Positions 14,505 through 17,206 of a stretch of 64,000 bases of DNA are shown one piece after another; within the stretch, counting starts at the first letter, position 1; each line of letters opens with the position of its first letter. The DNA comes from an uncultured Methanosarcinales archaeon (GTDB lineage: Archaea > Halobacteriota > Methanosarcinia > Methanotrichales > Methanotrichaceae): contig CAWJKV010000014.1 of NCBI GenBank assembly GCA_963843555.1, positions 64,001 through 128,000 of the forward strand, given 5' to 3'. Both the position numbers and the translations under genes were made by a program. The notes beneath the pieces were generated by a model. It was not told the DNA's origin. It did not search any database and saw only the letters and a list, made by a program, of their open reading frames with translations.

Positions 14505-15497
14505 TCAAATATCTCGATGGGATGCAATATCGCAACCCGTGCACGGCAGGCACATGGTCTCTGCCAGATCTGCCCTCAGGTCGTAATCTTTCAGCACTTT
14601 TCTGGTTATCCTGGCAAGCTTGAGAAGCCTATCGGCTGACGGCCTCTTGACTTCAGCTTCCCCCTTTCTTAATGGATGAGGCGATATTGGCCTCAAATTA
14701 GGTATGACGCCCATCTTTGCCAGTTTGGTTACTCCCGCCTCAACGCAATCGTCACTCTCGCCCAGGCCCAGGATGATGTTAGAGGAGACTCTGTTTTTCC
14801 CGAATATCTCCACGGCCTTCTTCAGGGACTTGAGTAGATATTCTAGAGATAAACCAGGGCAAATCCTGGCGAAGATCTCCGAATCCATGGTCTCCACGTT
14901 ATATTTAATCTCCGTTGCACCGGCTTGCTTCAGCTCCTCTGAGGATGTATCAGTAGGATAAACCGAAACGCCAATTGGCAAGTCATATCGCGCCCTCAGG
15001 ATCTTCACAATCGACACCGCTTTCCTGACCTCGTCTTCAGGCGACCTCTCCACTCCGCTGGTGAGAGAAATAGCTTTCAGCTGCCCTGTACGTTTGGCCT
15101 CCTCTACGAGTTGCAGGATTTCATCCGGGACCTTTACCTCTCCGTTGAGTTTAGGAACCGGGCAGAACTTGCAGTCATAAATGCAGCATCCGCTTATGGT
15201 CAGGTAGGCCTGCTCAGGGCAGTGGCTGAGAGCCGGCTCCAGCTTGCCGGTGACAATGGGTCTTCCATCTTTAATCACCACAACATCCGTGTAGCATCTG
15301 ATCACCTTGAAGGGAGAGTCCTTGTTGATGGAAAGCCTCACCCTGTGGCCGCCTGATTTGAGGAAGAAAGACTCCAGACCGGCTCCGGGTCCCGCGCTGG
15401 GTGTGGTTGTCCTGATAGCCTCCCGCAGCAAATCCTCGTCTATATCAGCGCTGCCGATGCTTACCAGCATTGCTTTAATCTCGGCATTCATCTCCAT
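14505..15497 (-). CDS. Radical SAM protein (biotin-synthase-related family)
   Basis: CxxxCxxC (CIYDCKFC); C-terminal CLPCTGC. Confidence 0.88.
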   Translation of the reverse strand: MEMNAEIKAMLVSIGSADIDEDLLREAIRTTTPSAGPGAGLESFFLKSGGHRVRLSINKDSPFKVIRCYTDVVVIKDGRPIVTGKLEPALSHCPEQAYLTISGCCIYDCKFCPVPKLNGEVKVPDEILQLVEEAKRTGQLKAISLTSGVERSPEDEVRKAVSIVKILRARYDLPIGVSVYPTDTSSEELKQAGATEIKYNVETMDSEIFARICPGLSLEYLLKSLKKAVEIFGKNRVSSNIILGLGESDDCVEAGVTKLAKMGVIPNLRPISPHPLRKGEAEVKRPSADRLLKLARITRKVLKDYDLRADLAETMCLPCTGCDIASHRDI

Positions 15498-15687
15498 GTT
15501 TGGGCCTCAAAATCAGTTTCCTGGATGGAATACAATTGATTCACAATTGTGAATGGATCATTTGAAGTGGATTGATATTTAAATAACGGCAATGCGGCAA
15601 AAACAAAAAGAGTTCAGTGACGGCTCTGCACCCCAACCTCTGCAGGACTGCAGCTCAGCCAAAAGCAGCGAAAATTGCCGCTACCCG

Positions 15688-15699
15688 TAAGTATTAAAG
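15688..15699 (+). promoter_or_regulatory. Putative TATA box for the tRNA-Cys/cysS transcript
   Basis: TAAGTATTAAAG about 30-40 nt upstream of the tRNA 5' end. Confidence 0.45.
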
Positions 15700-15729
15700 C
15701 ATCCTATTCTTCAGTTGAGAGATAGAGGT

Positions 15730-15800
15730 GCCGGGGTGACTGACCGGCTAAGTGCGCGGCTGCAGACCGCGAGAATTGGGTTCGACTCCCAACCCCGGCC
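15730..15800 (+). tRNA. tRNA-Cys(GCA) or tRNA-Cys-like element
   Basis: Acceptor GCCGGGG/CCCCGGC; D-arm ACT/AGT; anticodon arm CGCGG-CTGCAGA-CCGCG; T-arm TTGGG-TTCGACT-CCCAA; no encoded CCA. Confidence 0.88.
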
Positions 15801-15802
15801 TC

Positions 15803-17206
15803 ATGAAGATCCAAAGTACCATGACTGGAAACAAGGAGAATTTCCAGCCCATTCATAATAATCGCATCAATCTATTTGTCTGCGGTCCCACTGTCTATGA
15901 CGATTCACATATAGGCCACGCCAGAACCTACATCGCCTTCGATGTGGTGGCACGCTATCTCGAGTTCAAGGGCTATAGCGTCTTCTACCTGCAGAACATC
16001 ACCGATGTAGACGACAAGATCATCAAGAGGGCCATAGAGAGGGGCGAAAGTCCACGGTCGCTGGCGAGGAGGTTCGAAGAGAGATATCTGGAAGACATGC
16101 GTAGGCTGGGCGTTACCAACGTCAACTATTATGCTCGCGCCACAGAACATATCCCTGAGATCATCAGTCAGATAGAGAGATTGGTCGAGTTGGGTTTTGC
16201 CTACGAGACAAAGACCGGCATCTACTTCGATGAATCCCGTTTCGAAGATTTTGGAAAGCTCTCCCATCAGACGGCTGATGACCTGGAGAAGCACAGAATT
16301 GAGCCGGATCCGACGAAGAGAAATCCGGGAGACTTCTCTCTCTGGAAAAAGCGGCAGGACGGAGAGGAGGTGACCTGGAATTCTCCCTGGGGACCGGGCC
16401 GGCCCGGATGGCATATAGAGGACACGGCTATTACCGAGACCTATTTCGGAGCGCAGTATGATATCCATGGCGGTGCTATGGACCTGATCTTCCCTCATCA
16501 CGAGGCGGAGATCGCCCAGATGGAGGCGACTTCAGGGAAAAAGCCGCTGGTGAGATACTGGATGCACACCGGCTTTCTCAATGTCAGGGGCGAGAAGATG
16601 TCCAAGTCCCTGGGAAACTTCACAACCATTCGGGATATGCTGCAAAAATATGATGCGGATTCTTTCCGATTCTTCGTTCTTCTGGCCCACTACAGAAGCC
16701 CCATAGACTTCTCTGAGGAGGCTTTAGAGCAGGCTAAGAAGAGCCTGGAGCGGATAAAACAGGCCGCGAAGATCATTGAGGAGCAATTGGAAAGGGCCCC
16801 CGAGATGGAGTTTGAATCCATCGCTCCCGGAGAGGTAGATCCCATCGTGGCCCTGGCCAAAGCCAAATTCCTGGAATCCATGGATAACGATTTCAATACG
16901 CCTTACGCCCTGAGAGCCGTTTTCGACATGGTAAGGGAAGTAAATCGTCGCATCAATGAGAAGACCATTTCTCGAAAGGGATTGCAAGATGCCAGCCTTC
17001 AGCTTCGGGAATTTGGAGAGACACTCGGGCTGGGCTTCCATGCAGCAGGCAAAAAGCCAGCGGAAAAGGCAGATGATGTGACTGGCAATCTGATCGAGCT
17101 CCTGACCGAAACAAGGCAAAAGCTCCGCGAGAAAAAGGAGTGGCAGCTTGCTGATGAGATTCGAGCCAGGTTGAATGAGCTGAATATAGTCATTGAGGAC
17201 GCATAG
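15803..17206 (+). CDS. cysS: Cysteinyl-tRNA synthetase
   Basis: CGPTVY..HIGHAR, GRPGWHIED, FPHHEAE, KMSKS. True start is ATG 15803 (MKIQSTMTG matches the usual MKIYNTLT N-terminus). Confidence 0.98.
   Translation: MKIQSTMTGNKENFQPIHNNRINLFVCGPTVYDDSHIGHARTYIAFDVVARYLEFKGYSVFYLQNITDVDDKIIKRAIERGESPRSLARRFEERYLEDMRRLGVTNVNYYARATEHIPEIISQIERLVELGFAYETKTGIYFDESRFEDFGKLSHQTADDLEKHRIEPDPTKRNPGDFSLWKKRQDGEEVTWNSPWGPGRPGWHIEDTAITETYFGAQYDIHGGAMDLIFPHHEAEIAQMEATSGKKPLVRYWMHTGFLNVRGEKMSKSLGNFTTIRDMLQKYDADSFRFFVLLAHYRSPIDFSEEALEQAKKSLERIKQAAKIIEEQLERAPEMEFESIAPGEVDPIVALAKAKFLESMDNDFNTPYALRAVFDMVREVNRRINEKTISRKGLQDASLQLREFGETLGLGFHAAGKKPAEKADDVTGNLIELLTETRQKLREKKEWQLADEIRARLNELNIVIEDA

Follow-up and report, generated by a model that had tools for sequence, protein, structure and literature searches.

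The closest described counterparts of the locus analysed here are the non-U73 tRNA-Cys/CysRS pairs of SepRS-using methanogens. U73 is presented as a major identity element for both CysRS and SepRS in the consulted portions of two earlier papers (PMC9976931, PMC8762117), and the second of these describes tRNA-Cys with other discriminators, accompanied by matching CysRS changes, from some Methanobacterium (C73), from Methanospirillum and Methanoregula (G73), and from Methanolobus and Methanocella (A73), together with a suggestion that they are orthogonal to SepRS (PMC8762117, citing Perona et al. 2018). The pair in our window (the whole 64,000-nucleotide stretch of DNA that was analysed) is most likely a new lineage of this known kind: here too, a second tRNA-Cys with an altered discriminator occurs in the same genome as SepRS and a U73 tRNA-Cys, and the acceptor-binding region of CysRS is changed (at Glu144, at Gly176 and in a shortened loop). 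Its variant feature is a spacer of 1-3 nt between tRNA and cysS without a Shine-Dalgarno (SD) sequence, whereas the other non-U73 pairs have spacers of 26-301 nt (C73, Methanobacteriaceae), about 18-25 nt (G73) or about 28-60 nt (A73); the non-canonical 15/48 pair of the window's tRNA is a further point of difference. Neither Methanothrix nor Methanosaeta is named in the consulted portion of PMC8762117, and the 2018 chapter may name more lineages. In the literature searched, mostly open-access main texts, there was no report of such a pair from this lineage or of a tRNA abutting an archaeal cysS at 1-3 nt.

Partial parallels exist elsewhere. The PylRS1 and PylRS2 pairs are described as mutually orthogonal, as set by the discriminator base (PMC9071458, PMC9499178). 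They share with our locus two synthetase/tRNA routes per cell separated by base 73, but here the enzymes are unrelated (class I CysRS and class II SepRS) and orthogonality is putative. Mitochondrial mRNAs are almost leaderless. In mitochondrial tRNA punctuation, mRNAs are released by RNase P and RNase Z (PMC10941002). At our locus a tRNA likewise stands directly before a start codon, which follows its 3' end within a few nucleotides and without an SD, and excision would make the mRNA 5' end; unlike in mitochondria, a single archaeal gene is concerned, its mRNA encodes the tRNA's own synthetase, and release by excision is putative. Among archaeal tRNA co-transcripts, a tRNA-Lys of T. kodakarensis lies inside the 159-nt leader of TK0306, and tRNA-snoRNA co-transcripts are also described (PMC4247193). 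In these, as would be the case here, a tRNA is transcribed with a downstream gene, but they involve a long leader or a non-coding partner and no cut beside the AUG. Finally, the E. coli thrS operator is a tRNA-mimicking leader, in which a tRNA-like RNA precedes a synthetase gene. What precedes cysS here is, in contrast, a complete tRNA in which every arm is present; it has been conserved as such, lies up to 301 nt away from the gene in relatives, and is not a partial mimic tied to the start region.

The features of the locus, hereafter the cassette, are collected in Table 1. Both ARAGORN and Rfam (RF00005, 51 bits against a gathering threshold of 29, full length) recover the tRNA, which carries C15 (15744), G37 (15765), A48 (15775) and C73, begins with a G1-C72 pair and has no encoded CCA; C73 is followed by TC and then by the ATG of cysS at 15803. 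These searches and the sequence itself bear out the anatomy given in a first-pass annotation of this DNA (cloverleaf, C73, C15/A48, G37 and 2 nt to the ATG). Only 1 of the 45 ARAGORN tRNA calls in the genome, that of the cassette, has an ORF of at least 120 aa starting less than 30 nt downstream. In an alignment of 19 sequences hand-picked across the cassette (18 of them distinct, and non-independent as kin), 99.7% of cells are paired and 8 of the 20 pairs have changed on both sides; all four stems, the anticodon and the T loop are preserved. We rejected C15/A48 as a fixed feature of the cassette, and its conservation, proposed as a check, did not hold: position 15/48 is C/A, U/A, A/A or G/U in the window's lineage and G/C in most Methanobacteriaceae, and consequently C15/A48 is, on this comparison, local drift and no signature. 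An atypical 15/48 pair is also described for E. coli tRNA-Cys in the consulted part of PMC9976931.

Table 1 Features of the tRNA-Cys/cysS cassette and its upstream region, in window coordinates
Feature	Position	Strand	Evidence
Upstream box, conserved; candidate site for a regulator of the promoter of tRNA and cysS	15675..15684	+	37/41 distinct loci
TATA-like box, ~30 nt upstream of tRNA	15692..15699	+	Sequence; weaker match at same place in relatives
tRNA-Cys(GCA) with C73, C15/A48, G37, G1-C72	15730..15800	+	ARAGORN, Rfam, pairing conservation
Discriminator C73	15800..15800	+	Present in 41/41 distinct loci
2-nt spacer; entire leader if cut behind C73	15801..15802	+	2 nt in 39/41, 1 nt in 2/41; 3 nt in L233
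cysS, encoding the 467-aa CysRS (motifs HIGH and KMSKS)	15803..17206	+	TIGR00435, alignment to solved CysRS, model
Glu144 (Val146 in E. coli enzyme), candidate C73-reading residue	16232..16234	+	Covariation, alignment
Gly176 (E. coli Met179), weaker C73 covariation	16328..16330	+	93/94 C73-linked, 7/32 U73-linked
Asp207 replacing E. coli Cys209 (WHIED for WHIEC), whole-clade trait	16421..16423	+	Alignment

The junction and C73 are a real conserved feature and no assembly artefact. Conservation of C73 and of the spacing in relatives, another check proposed at the outset, holds throughout the 41 distinct related loci, whose spacers are all 1-2 nt, with L233 as a further family member; none of the 41 has an SD 4-mer in the 20 nt upstream of the ATG, in agreement with the earlier remark that there is no room for one. 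Within the genus, the cassette tRNA was matched in 26 of 59 genomes, C73 being read in all 26 and cysS following directly in 25, and a search for both parts in 37 genomes found both in 14, the tRNA only in 1, cysS only in none and neither in 22. Twenty sequencing runs, of which one is RNA (a share of 0.05), cover part of the stretch, all as contigs; an independent DNA contig spans 15630-15841 without a gap (X13 record 10), and no indel is listed at the tRNA-cysS junction in the contigs of four runs. Frameshifts do exist elsewhere in the assembly: the CCA-adding enzyme is split between two frames (G000:C5:106847-107969, minus strand), which fits indel errors, as had been suspected earlier. However, given the identical reading in all 41 loci and the four runs without a listed junction indel, the chance that C73 and the spacing stem from assembly error is negligible, and the caveat that one missing C would restore U73 is refuted by C73 in 26 of 26 genomes and by the gap-free contig. 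Decayed copies of the cassette also occur (L041, L042, L045-L047, L049, L050 and L080), some of which may be sequencing errors; they include lost start codons, deletions fusing the tRNA to mid-cysS (L080), a tRNA without cysS (L045) and a 3' half only (L049). The cassette has apparently been lost often.

In the host genome (82% complete), the other tRNA-Cys, on contig C17, has U73 and G15, and is the one normal tRNA-Cys that the proposed count of further genes revealed. The same genome also encodes SepRS, SepCysS, CysK and RNase Z, and no CysRS other than that of the cassette was found in it. Across the genus, 52 of the 59 genomes, including all 30 of high quality, have a U73 tRNA-Cys, and 53 have SepRS above cut-off; the cassette is accessory in the genus, and the housekeeping route is that of SepRS. 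Genes for cysK, nifS and serine acetyltransferase adjoin the cassette in some loci, and a Methanophagales record (L081) holds both tRNA-Cys genes, nifS, cysS, cysK and a serine acetyltransferase-like gene within 7 kb. Close to the intact SepRS gene lies another copy that is broken (G000:C1:21389-22992, minus strand), perhaps an assembly duplication.

Among the best 80 of 557 protein matches to the window CysRS, those at up to 87% identity are mostly labelled Methanothrix or Methanotrichaceae, and the next relatives after this lineage are Methanobacteriaceae. There, where tRNA-Cys lies at the longer distances given above, most loci have C73 and 4 have U73; in some of the C73 tRNAs (L085-L132), A37 replaces G37, which would remove a second SepRS determinant. 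The distribution of the altered discriminator follows that of the two enzymes. In 151 Methanobacteriales genomes, which are related, so that counts are non-independent events, and among which incomplete ones can hide genes, we found CysRS in 133, SepRS in 80 and a non-U73 tRNA-Cys in 52. All of the latter are C73 and belong to the 62 genomes with both enzymes, and none was found in the 18 SepRS-only or the 71 CysRS-only genomes (0 of 89 together). Only tRNAs with a GGC acceptor end could match the first discriminator pattern; a second one, for the GCC type, gave a single match, which was not tRNA-like, and further variants may have escaped both. Thirty of the 71 SepRS-less loci were inspected, and all 23 with an adjacent tRNA-Cys have U73. 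The switch is nevertheless not required, since C73 is missing from 10 of the 62 genomes that have both enzymes (5 with U73 beside cysS, 5 with no adjacent tRNA). Applied to 401 genomes from the phylum of the window, the pattern matched 32; 30 loci were read, 2 of them chance matches, and the matches include 7 G73 cassettes as well as A73 cassettes, in agreement with the G73 and A73 pairs described in the consulted part of PMC8762117. One cassette (L203, G308:C19) is 86% identical to the window CysRS in a genome assigned to another family, and is either a recent transfer or a mis-binned contig.

The cysS ORF is intact, and its product is identified as CysRS by family score (TIGR00435, 501 bits against a cut-off of 340), by both signature motifs and by its C-terminal domain; the structure model has a pLDDT of 82.8. 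We assembled 142 distinct clade proteins, leaving out duplicates and matches of fewer than 300 residues, of which 16 have no readable adjacent tRNA. Glu144 is present in 94 of 94 C73-linked proteins and in 1 of 32 U73-linked ones, and canonical CysRS enzymes have Val at this position. Gly176 was set aside as a marker of C73, being weaker than Glu144 and also present in 7 of the 32 U73 proteins. In the structure model, which lacks tRNA, Glu144 comes after strand 139-142 and Gly176 before strand 178-183, and we infer a putative contact of Glu144 with base 73. On a FastTree phylogeny, C73 was gained once, together with Glu144, and within the resulting C73 clade U73 reappeared on 4 separate occasions; Glu144 is absent from 3 of these reversions and retained in the other, L110. 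Consequently, the 94 C73/Glu144 proteins are non-independent, because the combination arose once, and the independent evidence for covariation, as read from these sequences, is 3 of 4 reversions. One group inside the C73 clade (L183-L187), with U73, Ile144 and no SepRS by family search, is a natural reversion. On the same tree, Methanotrichaceae CysRS form one clade (support 1.0) nested among Methanobacteriaceae, and the window CysRS lies among their C73 enzymes at 59-65% identity, which suggests transfer of the cassette from Methanobacteriaceae into Methanotrichaceae.

Combining these observations, we consider it probable that the cassette supplies a chargeable C73 tRNA and a CysRS that has co-evolved with it, separate from the SepRS route; charging and orthogonality of the C73 pair are likewise likely. 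The cell would thereby have a second, direct route to Cys-tRNA beside the housekeeping one, in which SepRS and SepCysS would act on the U73 tRNA-Cys. C73 should make the cassette tRNA a poor SepRS substrate, following the published identity rules, and the acceptor-binding region of CysRS would have changed, through Glu144, to accept it. The first-pass annotation had raised, as one of two alternatives, an unchargeable tRNA mimic that would regulate cysS by binding CysRS or SepRS. Such a mimic is in keeping with U73 being a major identity element of both enzymes in the consulted portions of PMC9976931 and PMC8762117, with a tRNA that abuts the start codon and with A48 and C15 forming no normal tertiary pair. 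However, the tRNA has retained its four stems, anticodon and T loop and survives in L045, where cysS is missing; an equivalent C73 tRNA lies 26-301 nt from cysS in Methanobacteriaceae, and C73 depends on the presence of SepRS and covaries with Glu144. Long spacers, the covariation with a residue of CysRS, and the existence of a published class of non-U73 pairs, which the annotation left unmentioned, all speak against the mimic, and we regard it as very unlikely. A different departure from the private pair would be an enzyme that, with the conserved active-site residue Cys209 replaced, charges its own tRNA with some other amino acid or uses it for a different function. Cys209 is presumably a zinc ligand in a canonical set of Cys28, Cys209, His234 and Glu238; the window CysRS keeps the other three and has Asp for Cys209, so that the canonical set is incomplete, and the neighbouring loop, which reads GAR in solved CysRS enzymes, is shortened. 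Against this reading, the same Asp is found in 30 of 30 inspected CysRS of SepRS-less Methanobacteriales, in which no other CysRS was found at E 1e-40 and the clade enzyme appears to be the sole route to Cys-tRNA, and cysteine synthesis genes flank some cassette loci; another substrate or function is accordingly highly improbable. Since SepRS-less genomes carry the same residue, Asp207 is no argument against function, and we dropped it as a sign of a new substrate. Methanobrevibacter and Methanosphaera are described as lacking SepRS in the part of PMC9499178 consulted. The WHIED motif marks a whole archaeal CysRS clade, as noted in Methanobacteriales and G73 cassettes (L133-L211) and including SepRS-less genomes. 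Neither a link between Glu144 and C73 nor a Cys209Asp enzyme is reported in the literature searched (mostly open-access main texts).

How cysS is translated is a separate matter. Very probably, tRNA and cysS are co-transcribed from a single promoter upstream of the tRNA. RNase P and RNase Z would then free the tRNA, and, since archaeal RNase Z usually cuts directly behind the discriminator, the cut behind C73 would leave a cysS mRNA with a 2-nt leader, to be translated as leaderless. The chances for and against translation of this processed product seem to us about equally balanced. Archaeal transcripts with leaders of up to 8 nt count as leaderless in the consulted text of PMC4247193. Of 700 ORFs in our genome, 49 have a TATA-like box some 30 nt upstream of the ATG, a peak over the 16 and 20 counted in control windows; leaderless mRNAs therefore probably exist in it. 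An RNase Z cut would leave a 5'-monophosphate end. For S. solfataricus, the part of PMC11698992 consulted describes a weaker initiation complex on 5'-monophosphate than on triphosphate leaderless mRNA, with an intermediate toeprint signal. The fuller proposal holds that RNase Z excision of the C73 tRNA creates a translatable leaderless cysS mRNA in Methanotrichaceae and a few neighbours, gating CysRS synthesis by tRNA maturation at one mRNA per tRNA, as an archaeal form of tRNA punctuation within a mobile orthogonal pair whose specificity is largely due to Glu144; as a whole we advance it tentatively, as possible and short of probable.

The same private pair could also be expressed from an uncut or 5'-trimmed transcript, translated without an SD, with the short spacer as inherited compaction. 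A clear SD is absent from most genes of this genome (in an approximate set of ORFs, SD 4-mers precede 277 of 700, background 120), and opening the start region in the precursor costs an ordinary 12.5 kcal/mol (median 10.9; among 300 sampled genes, 103 reach or exceed this cost), against 1.7 kcal/mol in the cut product. Occlusion of the precursor by folding is thus unsupported, and folding fails to show that processing is needed, in a test confined to secondary structure that ignores the tRNA tertiary fold; folding of 15720-15860 recovers the cloverleaf with a stability no greater than that of shuffles (z -0.26). For the release of a leaderless cysS mRNA by RNase Z, as first envisaged, the adjacency is conserved and the step plausible, but an unusual block in the precursor is not seen by folding. 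A relative's RNA-library contig, about 91% alike, spans 15724-16006 (X20 record 17), a weak hint of uncut RNA in that contigs show neither ends nor a single transcript. Conversely, the spacer stays at 1-2 nt in the 41 distinct loci while the distance from upstream box to tRNA runs from 48 to 66 nt in the 37 that carry the box, no spacer exceeds 3 nt among 42 loci of the lineage though upstream indels are tolerated, and in-frame GTG or TTG starts inside the tRNA are out of frame in the two loci with 1-nt spacers. The short spacer may owe its conservation in part to descent from a single transfer. We judge translation of the uncut transcript unlikely. A promoter inside the tRNA gene, yielding a primary leaderless transcript, would account for the constant geometry and provide a triphosphate end, and promoters of the leaderless type seem to exist in the genome. 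However, the stretch some 30 nt upstream of the ATG, which falls in the variable loop and T stem, contains no TATA-like run, and such a promoter is decidedly unlikely. Coupling to an upstream ORF was rejected: a TGA overlaps the ATG, but the reading frame it terminates contains no start codon downstream of the preceding stop, and some relatives lack the TGA.

Separation of CysRS and SepRS by the discriminator base is a published suggestion, to which our data add a test by distribution (C73 is confined to genomes that have both enzymes) and, in Glu144, one residue to mutate; given these two, the proposal is directly testable. A natural C73 CysRS/tRNA pair may also serve genetic code expansion, and the metal site of the Cys209Asp clade is worth structural study. 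If RNase Z makes the 2-nt leader, this would be a simple coupling of a synthetase to its tRNA, and the locus would test the use of processed monophosphate leaderless mRNAs by archaeal ribosomes.

Upstream of the tRNA, conservation is low: the preceding 45 nt have a mean identity of 36% over the 41 distinct loci, and the single TATA-like box previously noted is present in the window, but matches weakly in relatives. Divergent from the cassette lies a radical SAM gene (14505-15497, minus strand), for which the best NCBIfam matches fall below cut-off and a homolog of which is found near cysS in 12 of 35 loci. A regulator shared by this gene and the cassette, perhaps related to sulfur, is possible; the promoter region of the radical SAM gene (15576-15601) carries the cassette's box on the minus strand, before a TATA-like run.
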